Counted from the first letter of the stretch, positions 27,707-38,524 are shown. The stretch: DNA of 64,000 nucleotides from an uncultured Rivularia sp. (GCA_963665115.1 OY762007.1:3968001-4032000), one strand, 5' to 3'. Numbers and translations are program-made. The notes: generated by a model not told the origin, from the letters alone.

Positions 27707-28021
<315 letters not shown>

Positions 28022-28451: not shown

Positions 28452-29306
28452 TTAAAGTTCTGTTTGCTTAGCAAGCTCTAGGGCCGATCGACCAAATAAT
28501 AACTCGTTATCATCTTTGATTTTTCCAATGACATCCTGCTCTTTGGTGTAAGAAAATATCGCTGTACAACGTTGTTGATTGCCTACTACTTTAGTCACGC
28601 GGTGTAGAGACAATTTACCCTGGAATATTTGTAAGTCTCCCGGTTGTAAATTATTTTGCTGAACACCTTCGTAACATCCATGTAAAATTTGGCTGACTAA
28701 TTCAAAATTTTCACTCTGTGGTGTCCTAATATTAGGAGCATATTCAAAAATTCCCCCTTTACTAGCAGCTTGAATCATCAGAACAATACTGAAATCATTG
28801 TCATCATAATGCCACGGATGTTGTGCATCATTTCGTAAAATATTTAATACCAATCTGGCTAAAGGGTCATCATATTCATATATAACTTCGGTTGCCAAAC
28901 TAGCTGCAATAAAATTTTGAAAAATTGGTGCATGGTAAAGAGCTAGAAAAAGCGATTGGGGCTGAAATTTATTTTGCGGAACAAAAGCATTGGTTCGTTC
29001 CATAAAAAATCTTGCTGGATGTTCGGGTGCGAGTTTTGGATCGTCATCTGTTTTAAATATATTTGTTTTTCTTGTTGCATAATATGCTTCATGTTCTAAC
29101 GATAAAGATTCTTGTTGGGCAAAAAAAAGTGCCTTAGTAGTTAAAAAGTTCTTTAATACACAGCATCCGCGATGCTGCAACTGTTGGCGGCAATTAGCAA
29201 TTAAATCTAAAGATTTTTTTTGACATAGCTCTGCAATCGGATACTGCTGCAAATTTATAATTTCTTCAATTTTTAGCGGCGCTTCTGTAAGTTTTTTATT
29301 AATCAC
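28452..29306 (-). CDS. 2-oxoglutarate/Fe(II)-dependent oxygenase, BesD/HalD-related fold, hydroxylase-type
   Basis: WHYD (HxD), GGIFEYAPNIR, PGDL, distal His in SLHRVT and downstream Arg (QRCTA). Confidence 0.82.
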   Translation of the reverse strand: MINKKLTEAPLKIEEIINLQQYPIAELCQKKSLDLIANCRQQLQHRGCCVLKNFLTTKALFFAQQESLSLEHEAYYATRKTNIFKTDDDPKLAPEHPARFFMERTNAFVPQNKFQPQSLFLALYHAPIFQNFIAASLATEVIYEYDDPLARLVLNILRNDAQHPWHYDDNDFSIVLMIQAASKGGIFEYAPNIRTPQSENFELVSQILHGCYEGVQQNNLQPGDLQIFQGKLSLHRVTKVVGNQQRCTAIFSYTKEQDVIGKIKDDNELLFGRSALELAKQTEL

Positions 29307-29630
29307 TATATACCTGCTATTTTTACACTTGAGTTGCTCCCTGTAAAATGAGTGTCTAATGACTTCTCAAACAGCGATTATCATAGCAAACAGCAATGAA
29401 ATCAAAAAAATTGTCTTCAAGGTTACTTTGTACTCAAGACTACTTCTATCCCATTCAAAGAAACGAGATGATAAAGCCACGGATACGCAAAAGATAGAGA
29501 GGTCGAAGATATAGATAATCTTGCACGAGAAGAAAGTAACAACACGATTACTCCAATCTTTAGATGTAAGGCTATCAAATCAAAATTTCACAGCCTCACA
29601 TTGTTTATTACTAAAACTATTAAATAACCG

Positions 29631-31374
29631 ATGACGTACCAATTCCAAAATTCTCTTCCCAAGCTACCTTTACCAACGCTAGAACAAACTTGTAAACTAT
29701 ATCTTGAGATAGTTAAACCGTTATTAAGCGAACAAGAAATAGCACAAACCCAAGCAGTAGTTGAGGAATTTCAGCAAGAAAGCGGTCAAAAATTACAGCA
29801 TCAGTTAGAAATAATTAATCGTGCGACTAAAACCAGTTACGTTCACGATTACCGAGAAGAAAGTTTTTCGGAATATCGCGGGGCTTTAGTTATCAATAAA
29901 AACTTTGGCGGAATACTCACGCCAATTTCCCAGCCAGAATTACCTCAAGCTAAACTTGCTGCAACTTGGATTGTTGATACTTTAAAATTTTACCTAAAAA
30001 TTAAACGACGCGAACTTGAACCAGATAGAGATTCGCCACGTAATGGGAATCAACCAATGTGTATGATTCAATACGATAATTTATTTGGTTGGAATCGGAT
30101 TCCTGGTATTAAACGGGATGAAATGCGTCATAGTCCAGAGCAAGAAAATGTTGTAGTTATTTACCGGAATGTATTTTACTCGCTACAACCGCTCAAAGAA
30201 GAAAAAATTGCGCCAGCCTCAGAAATCGAGCAACAAATTAATTGGATTTTAAAGAATACTTCTTCCGATGAACCAGCTTTGGGAGCATTGACAGGTGTGA
30301 AAAGAGCTTCTTGGGCTGTAGTTTCGTCAAGGTACGGCAGCTTTAAATTCAGAAAATGCTCATTTTTTAGATTTATTAGATAGTGCTTTATTTGTAGTTT
30401 GCTTAGATGATGCAGCACCCGCGAATATAGAAGCAGCTTGTAAAAATGCACTACATGGAGATGGGAAAAATCGTTGTTTTGATAAGCCTTTACAATTAAT
30501 TTTTACATCTAATGGCTTATCGGGTATTAATGTCGAACACGTGGGAATTGATGGTTTTGTTATCATGCGCTACCTGTATGAAGTTAATCAAGAACGACAG
30601 CAGCAAAACCAGGAATTGGCGAACAATACATCTGTTGAGTTCGAGCCACCGACGCAATTAAACTGGAAATTCACTAAAGAAATTTTAGCCGAAATTAAGC
30701 AAGCAGAAGCAGAAGTCGAAGATTTTATTTCCGAACATGAAATAAAGGTTTTGGACTACCAAGAATTTGGGCGAAATTTGATTAAGAACTACCGTTTGAG
30801 TCCAGATGCTGTGGTTCAATTAGCAATTCAACTTGCTTATGTGAAGTTACGTGGAAAAATTGACTGTGTATATGAATCTGTACATACTCGACGGTTTGCA
30901 TACGGACGTACAGAAGCAATGCGTTCGGTTACTCCTGAGTCAATAGAGTTGATTCGTACTTTTACTGAGAAAGATTCAGATGAAGCAAAATATGCAGCCC
31001 TTAAGAAAGCTGTAGCGGCTCATGTCTGTCGCCAGAAAGATTGTCAGCAAGGATACGGTGTTGACAGGCATTTATCAGCACTATTACGGTTGGCGCGTGC
31101 CCAGGGAATGATGCCGAAAATTTACGAAGATAAAGCTTATAAAGTTCTTGGTGAATCAACTATCTGTACAAGCAGTTTAGCGGCAGGAATGGGTATGGAA
31201 TTATTTTGTTTTGGTCAAGTGGCAGATAATGGCTATGGTATTGGCTATATTATCAAGCCCGATAGTATTACTGTGAGTGTTACTAGTAAGTATCAGCAAA
31301 CACAAGAATACATTGAGTCATTACAACAGAGCTTTTCGGAGTTGGGTAAGTTGATAGCTCAAGAAAGCAAATAA
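29631..31374 (+). CDS. Choline/carnitine O-acyltransferase family protein, split by a +1 base at 30322-30324
   Basis: LPKLPLPTLEQT, PMCMIQY, VCLD, NRCFDK, catalytic EHVGIDG, SPDAVVQLAIQLAY, YESVHTRRFAYGRTE, GVDRHL, CTS. Removing one T gives a single 580-aa frame. Confidence 0.9.
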
Positions 31375-31388
31375 AATAATCAATTCTT

Positions 31389-31411
31389 AACCCGCTGTAA
31401 TGGCGGGTTTT
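31389..31411 (+). terminator. Rho-independent terminator
   Basis: AACCCGC-TGTAATG-GCGGGTT then TT, 15 nt after the acyltransferase stop. Confidence 0.75.
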
Positions 31412-31496: not shown

Positions 31497-33170
31497 ATGC
31501 TGCTCAACAACCGCTATCAGATACTTCGGACTTTGGGGAGCGGTGGATTTGGAGAAACTTTTCTAGCAAAAGACACTCAGATACCTTCGACTCGCCGATG
31601 CGTAATCAAACAGTTAAGAGTAATTCAAGATAATCCTCAAACTTATCAACTTGTGCAGCAGAGGTTTGCGCGAGAAGCGGCTATTTTGGAAGAATTGGGT
31701 GATGGCAATCCTCAAATTCCCCGATTATATGCATATTTTAGCGAAGGGCAGCAATTTTATTTAGCTCAGGAGTATATTCAAGGGCAGACTTTGAGCGAAG
31801 TTATTAGAAGTCGCGGGCGTTTGAATGAGTCTGGGGTGCGAGAAATATTAATTAGTCTATTGAATTTACTCGATTACGTTCATAGTAAGGGCATCGTTCA
31901 CCGCGACATCAAACCAGAAAATATTATTCTCCGCTCCTCCGATAATCGGCCAGTTTTAATTGATTTTGGTGCGGTGCGCGAGACAATGGCTGCACAAGTT
32001 AATTCTCGTGGGGGTATTACTAGTTCGATTGTCATCGGTACGCCGGGATTTATGTCAATCGAACAAGCTGCGGGGAGAGCTATTTTTGCTAGTGACTTGT
32101 ATAGTTTGGGGTTGGTAGCTATTTATTTGTTGACAGCTAAGTTGCCCCAGGAATTACAAACAGATATCCAAACCGGGGAAATTCTTTGGCAGAAAAACGG
32201 TATAAGTCCAAATTTTGCCTTAGTTTTAGATAAAGCAATTCGCTCTCAAGTTAGAGAACGTTTTGCTTCTGCTAAAGAAATGCTTAATGCGTTACAACCG
32301 CAGCCAACAGTAGAAACGGTACCGTTAAAATCAACACCAGTTGCAACCAGTCAAACAGGATGGCTTAAGTCGGCGTTAATGGGTGCTTTAATCGGTGGGT
32401 GCGTGCTGTTAGCTTTTGTGTTTGTTCAAGAAAGACAGCGATCGCCACAAACTAATCCCCCCATTCAACCAAAGCCGACGGTAGCAGCAAGCAAACCCGC
32501 AACAATCCCTGCCAAACAACAGCCTCAAAAGTTTTATTTTCTGGCAGATTCGGCTTTTCAAGAAATTAATAATGCTAACAATCAAATAACAGAATTAAAA
32601 AATGCTGGTTATAGCCAAGCTGGAAAATTTTGGTTGCGAGATTATCCCAATTTGTCTAATAATCCATACCATCAAGTTTATGTTGCAAAATTTAGCAGTC
32701 GTAGTAACTGTATTGAGTCGCTAAAAAATTACGTTCAACGCAATAAAAATGCTTATTGTGCCTTAGCGAGCGAGAATGCAAATGCATCGCCAAATTATTT
32801 TTACGGTTCTCAGGTAGAAATCCCAAAGACAGATGACAAACCATCTGCAAGTCAAGCAGTTGTAAATTACTATGCAACTATTAATAATCGGAACTATACA
32901 ACCAGTTGGAATCTACTTTCTCCAAAATTTCAAAGAAACAAATCTAATAATAAGTACTCCGAATATACTAATTGGTGGAATAAAGTTCAAAGAGTTGAAG
33001 TTGAACAAGCAAAGACTTTATCAACAACTTCCAATACTGCAACTGTAGAAGTACAAATGAAATATTATTTGAAATCGGGAAGAGTCATTCCCGACGCTCA
33101 ACGCTTCCAACTTCTATGGAATACAACGCAGCAAAACTGGAACATTGATGACTCTACCAAACTAAATTAA
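31497..33170 (+). CDS. Membrane Ser/Thr protein kinase (Hanks type) with periplasmic SPOR-like and NTF2-like domains
   Basis: GSGGFG, VIKQL, HRDIKPEN, DFG, GTPGF, DLYSLG; one TM helix; ectodomain assignments are pattern-based only. Confidence 0.92.
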   Translation: MLLNNRYQILRTLGSGGFGETFLAKDTQIPSTRRCVIKQLRVIQDNPQTYQLVQQRFAREAAILEELGDGNPQIPRLYAYFSEGQQFYLAQEYIQGQTLSEVIRSRGRLNESGVREILISLLNLLDYVHSKGIVHRDIKPENIILRSSDNRPVLIDFGAVRETMAAQVNSRGGITSSIVIGTPGFMSIEQAAGRAIFASDLYSLGLVAIYLLTAKLPQELQTDIQTGEILWQKNGISPNFALVLDKAIRSQVRERFASAKEMLNALQPQPTVETVPLKSTPVATSQTGWLKSALMGALIGGCVLLAFVFVQERQRSPQTNPPIQPKPTVAASKPATIPAKQQPQKFYFLADSAFQEINNANNQITELKNAGYSQAGKFWLRDYPNLSNNPYHQVYVAKFSSRSNCIESLKNYVQRNKNAYCALASENANASPNYFYGSQVEIPKTDDKPSASQAVVNYYATINNRNYTTSWNLLSPKFQRNKSNNKYSEYTNWWNKVQRVEVEQAKTLSTTSNTATVEVQMKYYLKSGRVIPDAQRFQLLWNTTQQNWNIDDSTKLN

Positions 33171-33268
33171 AGTTTTGATGAAAATATCGGCAATCGTATT
33201 TAAGTAAATACATAGAGGATGCCTGTTTTTTTTGTGGCTATAGTTTAATAAACATTGGGTGTGAACCT

Positions 33269-34792
33269 ATGATGACACCAACACTATTAAATCATCGCTA
33301 TAAAGTAATTCAAGTTCTAGCTTCCGGGGGATTCGGCGAAACCTTTTTGGCTGAAGATACCCAAATGCCTTCTAAGCGTAAATGTGTAATAAAACAACTC
33401 AAACCAGTAGAACACAATCCGCAAATATATCAATTAGTACAAGAAAGATTTCAGCGGGAAGCCGCACTTTTAGAACAACTAAGTGACGGTAAAAATCAAA
33501 TTCCTCAACTGTATGCTTATTTCACCGACGACGAGCAATTTTACTTAATTCAAGAATATATAGAAGGAGAAACCTTAACAAAAAAGCTGCGACAAGAAGG
33601 AGCTATTAGCGAAACCTCAGTCAAAGAAATTTTAATTAATATCTTACCCGTCTTGGAATACATTCACAGTAAACGTATTGTCCACCGAGATATTAAACCC
33701 GATAACATCTTAATTCGTTATAGCGATCGCAAACCTGTTTTAATTGACTTTGGTGCGGTTAAGGAAACCATGCAAACGGTAGTGGCTCCCGAATCCACAA
33801 GATCGATCGTAATTGGCACACCGGGATTTATGCCCAGCGAGCAAACAGCCGGGAGGCCAGTATATTCCAGCGATTTGTATAGTTTGGGACTAACTGCGAT
33901 ATACTTACTGACGGGGAAAATGCCCCAAGAATTACCTAATAATCCATCTACAGGTGAAATTATCTGGCGAGAATATGCTCCAAATATTAGCCCTAACTTT
34001 GCCGCAGTTTTAGATAAAGCGATTAAGTCTTATCCAGGCGATCGCTTTTCTACTGCCAAAGAAATGTTACAAGTGTTGCAGACTCAAGCAGTTCCTTTTC
34101 CACCGACAATACCTTACATTCCTGCACCATCGGAGACTCAAGACACGAAGCCTCCAACTGTAATTTCGGCACCAGTACCAACACCAGAAGTACAAACTCA
34201 GCCACCAACGGTTGTAGCTAATCCAGGAATGAAAGACTGGCAAAAAGCTACGATTATAGGCAGTGTAATTGGGTTATGTGCCATCGGTGGTATTTCAATA
34301 ATTAACAAACCATCAGCGAATGTTCGGGCTGATGCTTCTGCAAATACTACAAATCCAAATACATTTTCACCATCTGCATCATCGATAACAAGAGAAGCAG
34401 CTATTTCTGTACTAAATAAATGGCAAGATGCAAAGCGAGAATTATTTGCACCTCCTTTCGATCGCACTCTTGGAGCAGAATTAACTACAGGGGAAGCCTA
34501 TAGAAAAAATATAGGTACTGGTAGTTCATTGGATTGGTTAGAAAACAATGATTCTTATTATCGATATGGCGTGCAAAAAATTGACTCTGTAGAAAAATTT
34601 ATTGCTAGCAATAGTAGAGCAACAATCGATATTGTAATTACCGAAGATAGAAGATTTTATCAAAATGGAAAAATAGTTACCGGCGAAAATACTTCATTTG
34701 ACACTAGATTAGTCAGATATTCTTTGCAGTTAGAAGATGGAAATTTAAAAATTTCTGATTACAAAACTATCAATGTGATTAGCATTCATTAA
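33269..34792 (+). CDS. Membrane Ser/Thr protein kinase with C-terminal ARC6-IMS (DUF4101)-like domain
   Basis: Complete kinase motifs, Pro-rich linker, TM, then W..AK..FAPPFD..TG..WL..YYRY..VRY.L...KI.DY. Confidence 0.92.
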   Translation: MMTPTLLNHRYKVIQVLASGGFGETFLAEDTQMPSKRKCVIKQLKPVEHNPQIYQLVQERFQREAALLEQLSDGKNQIPQLYAYFTDDEQFYLIQEYIEGETLTKKLRQEGAISETSVKEILINILPVLEYIHSKRIVHRDIKPDNILIRYSDRKPVLIDFGAVKETMQTVVAPESTRSIVIGTPGFMPSEQTAGRPVYSSDLYSLGLTAIYLLTGKMPQELPNNPSTGEIIWREYAPNISPNFAAVLDKAIKSYPGDRFSTAKEMLQVLQTQAVPFPPTIPYIPAPSETQDTKPPTVISAPVPTPEVQTQPPTVVANPGMKDWQKATIIGSVIGLCAIGGISIINKPSANVRADASANTTNPNTFSPSASSITREAAISVLNKWQDAKRELFAPPFDRTLGAELTTGEAYRKNIGTGSSLDWLENNDSYYRYGVQKIDSVEKFIASNSRATIDIVITEDRRFYQNGKIVTGENTSFDTRLVRYSLQLEDGNLKISDYKTINVISIH

Positions 34793-34847
34793 TTTTTTTT
34801 TAAGTTTATCGCAGATTATAGTCAAAATTTAGTATAAATATATCAAC

Positions 34848-36002
34848 ATGAGATTAAGCGATAAAAAACGTTCAGTTAAATTACTTCGCTTGCAGTTTTT
34901 TAGTATAGTAACTGGAGTTGCACTAACTATCAGTTCAATTGGTTTACTTTTAATTAAACAGCAAAATGCCAATAATACCGAAACAGTTGCCAAAGTAAAT
35001 CAATCCAATCAGGCAGTATCATCACCTACAGCATCAGCTTCACCTGTTAAAGTATCAGAGAATATAGATACTTCAAAATTAGCATATAATATAACAACTT
35101 CTCCTCGATTTACTCAAAGTGAACAACTACAGAATATTGTCGATGAAGTTGTTGATTTGGCTAAAGAGCAAAAATTTGCAACTCAGCCACTATCAATAAC
35201 ATTAATTGATATAAAAACCGGAGAAACGGCAGGATATCAGCAAGAAAAACTTAGATATCCGGCAAGCGTAGTTAAATTATTTTGGATGGTTTACCTTTAC
35301 GATCAAATAGAAAAAGGTATTTTATCGGAAGCAGATTTTACTAAAAATTTAGATTTAATGATTAAAAAGTCTGATAATGAGGCTGCTAGTAAAATTGTTG
35401 ATAAAATTACTAAAACGCAATACCAAGAAAATATTCAAGAAGAAGAATATAAAAATTGGAAATATAAAAGATTGCAAATTAATCAATATTTTCAACAAGC
35501 TGGCTACGATGATATAAACGTAAGTCAAAAAACATTTCCAATTCCATCATTAGGGCTTTCTAAACCAGAAGGTTCAGAACTAAAGTTGCGAGAAAATCTT
35601 CAAAAGCCTATTCGCAATAAAATCTCAACTCAGCAGGTTGCCAGATTGTTATATGAAATTTACAAGAATCAATCCGTATCGGTAATTTCGAGTCCAAAGA
35701 TGGCACAATTATTAACAATAGATTCCAAAACTAGAAATATAAAAAAAGACGATAAAAATTCGATTTCATTCAATCCCGTAAGAGGATTTTTAAGCGCATC
35801 TTTACCAGATGATGTTTATTTCAGCGGAAAAGCAGGATGGACTTCTAATTCTCGTAACGATGCTGGAATCATCGCTACACCTGATGGAAAAGCGGCTTAT
35901 ATCTTAGTAGTATTTGCTGATGATAAAGCTTATGCATCTGATTGGGATTTATTTCCTCAAATTTCGCAATTAGTATTGCAGCAGATGACAAATAAAAAAT
36001 AA
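34848..36002 (+). CDS. Class A beta-lactamase-like serine hydrolase (PBP-A-like), membrane anchored
   Basis: SxxK (PASVVK), SDN, KAG, RNDAG; N-terminal TM helix. Confidence 0.88.
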   Translation: MRLSDKKRSVKLLRLQFFSIVTGVALTISSIGLLLIKQQNANNTETVAKVNQSNQAVSSPTASASPVKVSENIDTSKLAYNITTSPRFTQSEQLQNIVDEVVDLAKEQKFATQPLSITLIDIKTGETAGYQQEKLRYPASVVKLFWMVYLYDQIEKGILSEADFTKNLDLMIKKSDNEAASKIVDKITKTQYQENIQEEEYKNWKYKRLQINQYFQQAGYDDINVSQKTFPIPSLGLSKPEGSELKLRENLQKPIRNKISTQQVARLLYEIYKNQSVSVISSPKMAQLLTIDSKTRNIKKDDKNSISFNPVRGFLSASLPDDVYFSGKAGWTSNSRNDAGIIATPDGKAAYILVVFADDKAYASDWDLFPQISQLVLQQMTNKK

Positions 36003-36066
36003 AATTGATTTTGAATGTGGTTATAGGGAATAGAGGAAAAAGGAAATAGCGATAAATATTTAATTT

Positions 36067-36099
36067 GTAGGGTGCGTTATCGCTTCAGCGTAACGCACC
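36067..36099. repeat. GTAG-tagged palindrome
   Basis: GTAG-GGTGCGTTA..TAACGCACC. Confidence 0.7.
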
Positions 36100-36363
36100 A
36101 TTTTTAATATTTATGGTTCTTCAGTATGCCAAAAACTTAGCGTAAAAAGGCTTAAAAAATCATTATTACATTTTGATATTGCAAGCGATCGAGTTATTGC
36201 TGTGGGTGATGCAGAAAACGATTTAGATTGTTTAGATTTTTGTGGGTTTAAAGTTGCTGTCGGAAATGCTGAAGATGCTGTGAAAGCAAAAGCTGATTGG
36301 ATAGCGAATAAGGAAGAAGGTGAAGGTATGGTGGAATTTATTCGGAAATATTTACTTGCTTGA
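36094..36363 (+). pseudogene. 5'-truncated remnant of a HAD-IIB (Cof-type) hydrolase
   Basis: Open frame with no suitable start: ..VIAVGDAENDLDCLDFCGFKVAVGNAEDAVKAKADWIA..GMVEFIRKYLLA*; motif IV present, motif I absent. Not in the ORF track. Confidence 0.82.
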
Positions 36364-36544
36364 AATATTGTATTATGGAATATTCGAGCAAGATTGTGAT
36401 TAATTCCTTCCTGCTCCTACGATTACCGAGAAAAAAAAGAAAGAAAGAGATATAGCTAATTTTAAAGCAGGATAAGAGTTATAGAGAGCAAGATCCTCCA
36501 ACTACCTTTAATTGATCACTGATAATTGATAATTGATAACTGAT

Positions 36545-37597
36545 ATGACTAGCTTATTCCGTGCTGAAGTTGATGCGATGACTGGCTATATCCCTGGAGA
36601 GCAGCCAAAATCTGATAGTAAAATTATTAAACTTAATAGCAACGAAAATCCTTATCCTCCTTCCTCTGCGGTGAAAGATGTATTGCAAAACTTTGATTGG
36701 GAATGGTTGCGACGATATCCTGATGCTTCTGCTAGCGATTTTCGTAATGCTGTTAGTGAGGTTTTGAATATTCCAGGTGACTGGATAATTGTCGGTAACG
36801 GTAGCGATGAAGTTTTGAATTTAGTAATTCGGGCTTGCACCGATGCTAGTAGAAAAGTTGTTTATCCCATGCCTACTTACGTACTTTACCGCACCTTGGT
36901 AGAAATGCAGGCAGCCGAAACGGTAGAAATTGATTATCCCGAAGATTATAAGTTACCGATAGAAGAATTAGTAAAAGTTGATGGTGCGGTAACATTTATC
37001 GCAACTCCTAACAGCCCATCTGGACATATTGTACCAGTTGAAGATTTACGAGAATTAGCAACAAGATTATCTGGTGTAATAGTTATTGATGAAGCTTATT
37101 GTGATTTTGCGACTGGGGATGCTTTATCTGTAGTGAAAGAGTTTGAAAATGTAATTTCTATCCGTACTTTATCGAAGGGATATTCGCTAGCGGGGATTAG
37201 ATTGGGTTTTGGGATTGCCAATCCAAAGTTATTGCAGGGTTTATATAAAATCAAAGATAGCTACAATATTGATGCTATTGCTTGCGCTATCGGTGCTGCT
37301 GCGATGCGCGACCAAAATTATAAAAATAGCTGTGCAGAAAAAGTTAAAATATCGCGGGGAAGGCTGTCGGAAGATTTAGAAAAATTAGGGTTTAAAGTTT
37401 GGGATTCTCAGACGAATTTTGTATTAACTCAACCACCGCAAGGTAATGCTGAGTATCTGTATTTAAAGTTGAAAGAGCAAGGTATTTTGATTAGGTATTT
37501 TAAGCAGGAAGGCTTGGAAGATAAGTTACGGATTGCTGTGGGTACGGATGAGGAAAATCAGGTTTTGGTTGAGGCTTTGGGTGGGTTGGTGAAGTAG
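36545..37597 (+). CDS. hisC: Histidinol-phosphate aminotransferase
   Basis: KLNSNENPY, RRYPD, GNGSDE, PNSPSG, DEAY, RTLSKGYSLAGIRLG. ATG at 36545 preferred over TTG at 36533. Confidence 0.93.
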   Translation: MTSLFRAEVDAMTGYIPGEQPKSDSKIIKLNSNENPYPPSSAVKDVLQNFDWEWLRRYPDASASDFRNAVSEVLNIPGDWIIVGNGSDEVLNLVIRACTDASRKVVYPMPTYVLYRTLVEMQAAETVEIDYPEDYKLPIEELVKVDGAVTFIATPNSPSGHIVPVEDLRELATRLSGVIVIDEAYCDFATGDALSVVKEFENVISIRTLSKGYSLAGIRLGFGIANPKLLQGLYKIKDSYNIDAIACAIGAAAMRDQNYKNSCAEKVKISRGRLSEDLEKLGFKVWDSQTNFVLTQPPQGNAEYLYLKLKEQGILIRYFKQEGLEDKLRIAVGTDEENQVLVEALGGLVK

Positions 37598-37663
37598 AAT
37601 TTAAGATTTTAACGTAAAGTCGCGCAGAGGTTTACACAGAGTTTTGATTAAAGTTGATTGATT

Positions 37664-38524
37664 ATGAGCAAAAACAGAAATCAACGTGCAGAAATTGGCA
37701 ATGAAACTGTTGGTATTTTAGAGAAAGGTTTTTACCAAAATCAGCAAGAAGAAACTATTTATATTCAAGAATATCTACAAGCTGCAATAAAAAAATCAAT
37801 TCATTATTCTGAAAACGATTTTTCACAAGTACTTTCTCAATTAAATAAAAAGCAACTCAGAGAAAATCCAAATCCGATACAGTTTGAAATAAACAATGAA
37901 ACTACTCTGAATGCTGCAAGTAGATTGGTAAATCACCAAGGTTTTGACAAAGTATTATGTTTAAACTTTGCTTCAGCTAAAAATCCCGGTGGTGGATTTC
38001 TCAATGGTAGTCAAGCACAGGAAGAAAGTTTAGCTAGAGCAACCGGGCTTTATCCCTGTATTTCTCAAATGATGGAAATGTATGAGAAAAATCGAAATTA
38101 TAGTTCGTGTCTCTACCTGGATGATATGATTTATTCGCCGCAAGTGCCGGTTATTAGAGATGATAACGATCAATTATTAGATAAACCTTTTTTAATTTCG
38201 ATTTTGACGGTACCCGCTGTTAATGCTGGTGCGGTAAGGAAGAATGGTAAAAAACAAGAAATAAATAAAATTGAAAGTACGATGTTGCTACGTACAGAAA
38301 AATTATTATCAGTTGCAGCAGTTAATGATTATAAAGTTTTGGTTTTAGGTGCTTGGGGATGTGGTGTATTCAAAAACAATCCCGATGATGTCGCAGGATA
38401 TTTTCATTATCATCTTGTAGAAAATCAGAAATTTTACGGTTTGTTTGAAAAGGTTGTGTTTGCTGTTTTGGATAATACGAAGGATGAAAGCGTTATTGAT
38501 GCCTTTAGGAAAAGGTTTGAATAA
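37664..38524 (+). CDS. TIGR02452 family protein (bacterial PARG-like macrodomain)
   Basis: LNFASAKNPGGGFLNGSQAQEE and LVLGAWGCGVF signatures. Confidence 0.92.
   Translation: MSKNRNQRAEIGNETVGILEKGFYQNQQEETIYIQEYLQAAIKKSIHYSENDFSQVLSQLNKKQLRENPNPIQFEINNETTLNAASRLVNHQGFDKVLCLNFASAKNPGGGFLNGSQAQEESLARATGLYPCISQMMEMYEKNRNYSSCLYLDDMIYSPQVPVIRDDNDQLLDKPFLISILTVPAVNAGAVRKNGKKQEINKIESTMLLRTEKLLSVAAVNDYKVLVLGAWGCGVFKNNPDDVAGYFHYHLVENQKFYGLFEKVVFAVLDNTKDESVIDAFRKRFE

Follow-up and report, generated by a model that had tools for sequence, protein, structure and literature searches.

The closest described relatives of the locus reported here belong to two separate enzyme families: the carnitine and choline O-acyltransferases CrAT, COT, CPT2 and ChAT (PDB 1nm8, 1ndb, 1xl7, 2deb and 2fy2), and the BesD, HalB and HalD enzymes together with the lysine hydroxylase 7jsd (PF23169). 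In terms of chemistry, the nearest counterpart is the eukaryotic carnitine route, in which 2-oxoglutarate (2OG)-dependent hydroxylation of an onium acid by BBOX is followed by O-acetylation by CrAT; PMC11773067 describes carnitine and homocarnitine (the latter from delta-valerobetaine) as products of mammalian BBOX and ascribes acetyl-homocarnitine to CrAT. Here we describe a head-to-head gene pair, a predicted Fe(II)/2OG oxygenase and a choline/carnitine acyltransferase, at positions 28452-31374 of a 64,000-nucleotide stretch (the window) from an uncultured Rivularia sp. (GCA_963665115.1 OY762007.1:3968001-4032000). Both enzyme families are known, but their combination is new and strongly backed by genomic evidence; the substrate class of the pair is one that we infer from residues and from the gene neighbours of relatives. 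In the full texts covered by our literature survey, which included few subscription papers, we found neither the pair nor any PF00755 enzyme of cyanobacteria described, nor the proteobacterial oxygenase operon discussed below or a tested substrate for this oxygenase branch; the initial annotation likewise knew of no such pathway in cyanobacteria.

The transferase gene (29631-31374, + strand) is interrupted by a frameshift in the window; its intact relative at locus L006, 96% identical, encodes 580 residues. Both parts nevertheless match PF00755 far above the cut-off of 22.3 bits, the N-terminal half over profile positions 1-233 (6e-56, 190.6 bits) and the C-terminal half, in another frame, over positions 242-574 (2e-105, 354.2 bits), in agreement with the family proposed initially, and intact relatives score 553-577 bits. 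The catalytic His, YES..RF, GRTE and CTS motifs noticed at the outset are all present, and the window reads EHVGIDG (catalytic His codon at 30538-30540, +), YESVHTRRF, GRTE (30904-30915, +), GVDRH (DRH at 31063-31071, +) and CTSS. H303 and D307 of the HxxxDG motif are invariant across 26 sequences. A structure model of the L006 protein (predicted local distance difference test score, pLDDT, 83) has a two-domain fold with template modelling scores (TM-scores) of 0.88-0.90 to ChAT, COT, CPT2 and CrAT. The transferase therefore has the same whole fold and HxxxDG motif as these enzymes, and the YES, GRTE, DRH and S/CTS motifs of their carnitine-type members, but it is only 27-28% identical to them, is bacterial, forms its own cyanobacterial clade and has a BesD-fold oxygenase as a fixed partner.

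The motifs are informative about the acceptor. YES, GRTE and DRH are kept in the window and in 21/21 rows of the clade of paired transferases, with the same letters in COT and CPT2, and we take YES, the Thr of GRTE and the Arg of DRH to be the residues that hold the carnitine carboxylate. ChAT instead has GRVD and DNH, the choline-type letters that the transferase lacks. Two comparisons within the family help this reading: cyanobacterial relatives in nonribosomal peptide or polyketide clusters have mostly lost the carnitine-type motifs, and most of the OpuAC-linked transferases of anaerobes resemble ChAT (both are detailed below). Judged from sequence, the acceptor residues are thus carnitine-type and not choline-type. 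The acetylcholine-like product that had initially been considered next to an acylcarnitine-like one is less well supported on this basis, while a quaternary-amine or, additionally, a sulfonium acceptor is still the best guess. For the acyl group, the position of CrAT Met564, which presumably has a role in acyl-chain preference, is occupied by Phe in the transferase; for CrAT itself, a structure of the M564G mutant with hexanoylcarnitine exists, according to its title. The bulky Phe makes a short acyl group likely, probably acetyl from acetyl-coenzyme A (acetyl-CoA).

The oxygenase gene (28452-29306, - strand) encodes 284 residues and has a GTG start, which is ATG in relatives. Its assignment to the HalD/BesD group, as first suggested, stands for the broad Pfam family HalD PF23169 (57.7 bits; gathering cut-off 26) and fails for the NCBIfam BesD equivalog NF042920 (11.8 bits; cut-off 450). 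No TauD, BBOX or TMLD profile matched it (Pfam E<=0.1; NCBIfam E<=1); BBOX is a TauD-family enzyme, and any likeness between the two would be convergent. The motif HPWHYDDN suggests H166 and D168, together with H235, as iron ligands, and R246 is the predicted 2OG-binding Arg; none of the four residues varies across 18 cyanobacterial oxygenase rows. A structure model (pLDDT 88.9) has HalD, HalB, BesD and 7jsd as its nearest solved structures (Foldseek, VIA-align), with a Z score of 23.2 and a root-mean-square deviation of 3.3 over 234 residues for HalB, and 17.9 for the next chain. The HxD...H triad, the 2OG Arg and the double-stranded beta-helix of Fe(II)/2OG hydroxylases are all found, whereas every cyanobacterial and sister-clade row has HYD or HFD in place of the HxG/A of halogenases. 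This supports a predicted iron site of the hydroxylase and not the halogenase type, as was noticed originally, despite the name 'HalD/BesD family halogenase' that databases give to this branch.

With respect to the substrate, R104 of the oxygenase aligns with HalB Arg83, a residue that binds the substrate carboxylate according to PMC10041140. R104 is invariant in 18 cyanobacterial and 12 sister-clade rows and in the Ruegeria-type rows, but not in the remaining ones. The Glu and Asp that are constant in five solved BesD-family sequences are replaced by Leu149 and a variable residue at 169; in the solved lysine enzymes, we take these two acids to have an amine-binding role. The oxygenase thus matches BesD, HalB, HalD and 7jsd in fold, HxWH motif and carboxylate Arg, and departs from them in its HxD, in the replaced Glu and Asp, in an identity of 13-16% and in coming from a far bigger branch that is unstudied and counts 1658 representatives at E<=1e-10.

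The two genes are tightly linked. As described initially, they lie head to head 324 bp apart (spacer 29307-29630) and beside rpsT (27707-28003, - strand; named from its sequence). Each is single-copy in the genome, and both occur in the identical 11/61 related genomes, with no genome having one alone. All 11 carriers belong to the genus of the window (11/27) and have the divergent pair, which lies before a Ser/Thr kinase gene in 11/11 and after rpsT in 10/11 loci. Nine of ten same-genus non-carriers examined show a clean empty site, where rpsT and the kinase gene are 327-748 bases apart, compared to 3.5 kb here; in the tenth, the contig ends first. Non-carriers form six groups interleaved with carriers on an rpoC1 tree (FastTree; 24/27 genus genomes, omitting G002, G003 and G022), suggesting repeated joint loss. 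Scanning species genomes with the transferase alignment gave 53 loci, with the oxygenase divergently adjacent in 18 and not in 35. On the transferase tree (FastTree; the broken copies L066 and L067 were omitted and assigned to the paired clade by 94% identity), the paired clade (support 91) holds 19 genome loci, 18 of them with a head-to-head oxygenase. The 19th, L069, starts 145 bases from a contig end, and the oxygenase of the same genome lies 135 bases from another. Among metagenome loci, 6/7 have the pair, and the seventh begins 196 bases upstream. The hosts include Rivularia, Richelia UBA3308, Mastigocoleus, Calothrix rhizosoleniae and three metagenome-assembled genomes (RpoC1 84-86% identical to that of the window), the cultured named ones being marine; the nearest named homologues are from Rivularia, followed by Mastigocoleus and Calothrix. 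The flanks of the pair change between genera. The gene trees of oxygenase and transferase have a common deep topology, the pairwise identities of the two genes correlate (rho 0.94; 16 pairs, in which kin are not independent), and dN/dS ratios (nonsynonymous to synonymous substitution) of 0.10-0.16 for the transferase and 0.18-0.37 for the oxygenase over 15 pairs indicate purifying selection. The unit is rare: none of another 400 genomes from the phylum had a PF00755 match; the plasmids searched contained no transferase match either. Two Microcoleus genomes have distant oxygenases that lie approximately 23 kb and over 100 kb away from the transferases of these genomes; being this far away and outside the paired clade, they were not counted. 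The co-occurrence and, across several genera, the adjacency proposed at the outset as a check are therefore borne out, and the sequence comparisons support the view that the two genes form one functional, jointly inherited unit.

The transferase frame is split at a T run with one extra base (30322-30324, + strand). The extra T is missing from 8/8 intact relatives and from two relatives that are broken elsewhere in the gene. Sequencing runs X2 and X3, compared, like the others, at the level of contigs, are the same as the window over 3051 bases with the missing T as the sole difference, and X4, X6 and X10 also do not have it. Run X1 carries the extra T at word depth 229 and may be the source of this assembly. 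In each of three near-identical genomes that consist of a single contig, the transferase gene has its own +1 break, and these broken copies sit in assemblies with many frameshifted open reading frames (ORFs). Relative to G001, net frameshifts were found in 12/66 (G000), 19/64 (G003) and 19/59 (G007) aligned ORFs, counts that include shared or ORF-end cases and are not all private errors; in G003, rpoC1 itself is split. Most single-base insertions in G000 extend a homopolymer run. The break is thus very probably a long-read sequencing or assembly error, as suspected from the beginning, a real change in sample S1 being the less probable alternative. More single-base ORF insertions relative to G001 are present in the window at approximately 44619, 56448 and 59373; other frameshift findings from this genome are best regarded as likely sequencing errors as well.

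The same data bear on the possibility that the genes are linked but not sequential, i.e., that a divergent promoter and a common signal or class of substrate unite them while they act on different molecules, or that the transferase is truly dead here. The two genes are transcribed apart, and the depth of the extra base in X1 and the different breaks in the three single-contig genomes would fit a dead gene. However, the head-to-head pair persists through changes of locus and through lineages with RpoC1 84-86% identical, and for the dead transferase the state of the assemblies and the sequences of X2 and X3 argue the other way. We regard this explanation as quite improbable.

In 6/19 genomes (L061, L064, L068, L070, L074 and G452), a gene for an S-adenosylmethionine (SAM) methyltransferase lies tail-to-tail with either gene. 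One strong match to it is in a non-carrier (G024); it has no close solved structure and no NCBIfam family, and Atlas gave bacterial methyltransferase clusters with METTL27-like ones lower down, which is a lead only. This gene would suit the tailoring of an amino acid or another secondary-metabolite precursor, by hydroxylation and O-acylation of lysine, trimethyllysine or a compound methylated by the third enzyme. The nearest solved structures of the oxygenase, i.e., lysine/ornithine halogenases and a lysine hydroxylase, the extra acidic residues of the Nostocales pocket HDYREESF and the presence of sister cyanobacterial transferases within clusters for nonribosomal peptide synthetases (NRPS) or polyketide synthases (PKS) are in keeping with such a role. 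However, those transferases (L071-L073, L077-L079), although the nearest relatives of the paired ones at 42-49% identity, mostly lack the YES, GRTE and DRH that the paired enzymes keep, have no adjacent oxygenase of this family and in one case are fused to a PKS. The low identity of the oxygenase to the solved structures, its replaced Glu and Asp and its BesD equivalog score also speak against tailoring, making it rather unlikely. A free amino acid such as lysine, which the initial annotation had named as a possible substrate of BesD-related enzymes, is less supported because of the same Glu/Asp replacement and because the nearest relatives lie in betaine-type operons.

Those operons come from the relatives of the oxygenase. 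In a quick tree, the cyanobacterial oxygenase clade (support 100) is sister to proteobacterial genes, with a Shimodaira-Hasegawa-like approximate likelihood ratio test value (SH-aLRT) of 91. In four of the five sister loci, the gene order is a divergent LysR gene, the oxygenase gene and a gene for a DddP-like M24 protein, the fifth stopping at a contig edge, and Pseudomonas MPC6 likewise has this order (operons at L106:8948-15071, L107:8935-12190, L164:5945-10241, L165:5754-8925, L167:4579-8995 and L166:7136-9314). The DddP-like proteins score 286-388 bits, below the DddP cut-off of 600, and their genes are followed by those for a ProX/ProW/ProV-type betaine ATP-binding cassette (ABC) transporter, for a GbdR-like regulator or for a CoA-transferase. 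The proteobacterial oxygenases (Caballeronia L106, Pseudomonas L107, L164, L165 and L167) are approximately 40% identical to the cyanobacterial one and have R104, N155, N170, an acid at 171 and T248 in common with it; they differ in their DddP-like and betaine-uptake or CoA-transferase neighbours, in a longer C-terminal lid and in having no PF00755-like gene in the stretches examined. By its gene content, the LysR/oxygenase/DddP-like operon is a candidate for an undescribed route of onium-acid breakdown. The cyanobacterial oxygenase was likely acquired from such betaine/sulfonium catabolic operons, with the transferase replacing the DddP-like gene. DddP-like genes also adjoin more distant family members (L139, L141 and L182), and other neighbours of the remoter family include BetI-like, DmdA-like and BBOX-like genes, choline dehydrogenase, the trimethylamine methyltransferase family, a Rieske oxygenase and formaldehyde-detoxifying genes; still other remote members have no betaine-type neighbours. 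Family matches occur in 34/301 and 13/300 genomes of two proteobacterial classes.

Could the cyanobacterial pair itself be catabolic? An acylcarnitine-like compound would then be imported, the transferase would run in reverse to yield acyl-CoA and the oxygenase would attack the freed onium compound, either by hydroxylating an N- or S-methyl group, which would be lost as formaldehyde, or by C-N or C-S cleavage. PF00755 enzymes are reversible, the wider oxygenase family occurs in the catabolic settings listed above, and an OsmF-type ABC importer is present in the genome. By analogy only, PMC12508155 describes demethylation of methylguanidine by a 2OG hydroxylase followed by a lyase. However, tblastn with DddP-like, CaiB-like, BBOX-like and BCCT queries gave no match in the genome, which argues against breakdown. 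In addition, the pair has no adjoining transporter or regulator in the loci examined, whereas the catabolic operons and the OpuAC-linked transferase genes of anaerobes do, and the recurrent third gene of the pair encodes a methyltransferase and not a lyase. We regard this scavenging or breakdown scheme as unlikely.

We therefore come to the biosynthetic reading that we prefer. The oxygenase would hydroxylate a small onium-bearing carboxylic acid of the gamma-butyrobetaine, delta-valerobetaine or sulfonium type, and the transferase would acylate the resulting hydroxyl with a short group, likely the acetyl of acetyl-CoA, which would yield a product like acetylcarnitine. The precursor would come from uptake or, in 6/19 genomes, possibly via the adjacent methyltransferase. 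The retained R104, the replacement of the Glu and Asp of the lysine enzymes and the betaine-type operons of relatives together point to an onium carboxylic acid without an alpha-amine; the order of the steps, the preference for acetyl and the source of the precursor are, like the substrate class, inferred. The BBOX and CrAT products in PMC11773067 show that this chemistry is workable on C4 and C5 chains. The product may serve as an osmolyte, an acetyl store or a signal. Overall, we consider the case for hydroxylation followed by O-acetylation of a butyrobetaine-like onium acid to be evenly balanced.

Several points weigh against it. The N-terminal pocket of the transferase, YVHDYREESF, replaces the Trp-rich motif of eukaryotic enzymes and varies between the two paired subclades, so that the acceptor may be a carnitine analogue and not carnitine itself. 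The C-terminal lid of the oxygenase is shorter and altered compared to the sister clade (R266 is D or N, and the tail is lost); since this lid determines selectivity in HalB and BesD according to PMC10041140, the substrate of the sister clade need not apply to the cyanobacterial enzyme. The sister-clade link, for its part, depends on the SH-aLRT of 91 in a quick tree. A betaine ABC binding protein is present in 19/22 genus genomes and missing in carrier G005, and hence does not track the pair. The third-gene methyltransferase was not found in any of the 11 genus carriers, including this genome, and is thus optional. With regard to linkage, kinship among the 16 pairs inflates the Mantel significance of the distance correlation, and one deletion can remove neighbours jointly regardless of function.

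A spacer block at approximately 29377-29405 is conserved in relatives and fits a -35/-10 pattern directed toward the oxygenase; taken alone this is weak, with 14 promoter-like sites found compared to 11.7 expected. The terminator of its own that had been claimed for the pair corresponds to a terminator-like hairpin 3' of the transferase (31389-31409, + strand), while the scan as a whole does no better than shuffled sequence (2 sites versus 2.3 expected). The rpsT gene on the left lies outside the unit and is retained at empty sites. The Ser/Thr kinase gene on the right (31497-33170, + strand) is also outside it, adjoins rpsT in non-carriers and is not beside the pair in other genera. It opens a block (31497-38524) that encodes two Ser/Thr kinases, of which one contains an ARC6-like IMS domain, as well as a protein of beta-lactamase fold and a microbial PARG-like protein; non-carriers have this block too, and it is thus unrelated to the pair.

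Relatives of both enzymes in other settings deserve mention in their own right. In Microcoleus and Nostoc (L072, L073, L077 and L079), PF00755 genes that stand alone, with NRPS/PKS genes as neighbours, encode proteins that keep the catalytic His and have lost the carnitine-type motifs. A cyanobacterial metagenome-assembled genome has a PKS ending in a carnitine-acyltransferase (cAT) domain (KS-AT-KR-ACP-cAT; L078:4997-11722, protein P0172); such PKS cAT domains occur in fungi. In Aerosakkonema sp. BLCC-F183 (L071:777-14626), a PF00755 gene lies in an onium-type cluster with genes for an AMP-ligase, a carrier protein and a sulfotransferase, and the opposite strand encodes a double methyltransferase, two Rieske oxygenases, a thiamine pyrophosphate enzyme, a TmpA/BBOX-like dioxygenase (218 bits) and an ABC transporter. 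In anaerobes, PF00755 genes immediately follow a gene for an OpuAC-type binding protein, or else precede one for a BCCT transporter (L080:8908-11761, L082:8909-11761, L086, L090, L093, L097 and L096:91-3402), and five of six OpuAC-linked transferases carry GRIE and DxH, which is ChAT-like. On a Pantoea plasmid (L109:786-7762), genes for urea carboxylase and UAAP1/2 adjoin one for a distant oxygenase of the family, an arrangement that resembles the surroundings of the methylguanidine hydroxylase MgdH. Two longer oxygenase relatives were rejected as transferase fusions, the second part of one (838 residues) being an aldo-keto reductase and the other (577 residues) having no second Pfam family; in a search for longer relatives, none of the 7989 candidates was scored, which is weak evidence.

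The pair offers a direct two-enzyme screen, in which the transferase narrows the product down to an alcohol of carnitine shape, and strains of the genus that naturally carry or lack the pair lend themselves to comparative metabolomics. In its widest form, our proposal is that these cyanobacteria make carnitine, or an onium compound closely analogous to it, and its acetyl ester via a hydroxylase of BesD fold that has no relation to BBOX, so that the final steps of the animal carnitine route were invented independently, and that the same clade, together with a DddP-like lyase, mediates an unrecognised proteobacterial breakdown of onium acids that releases trimethylamine or dimethyl sulfide; we put this forward tentatively, as a minor possibility. 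A hit in the two-enzyme screen would name the substrate class for a widespread oxygenase family and reveal a bacterial route to acylcarnitine-like compounds, and through the sister operons it might point to a trimethylamine or dimethyl sulfide source that is new.

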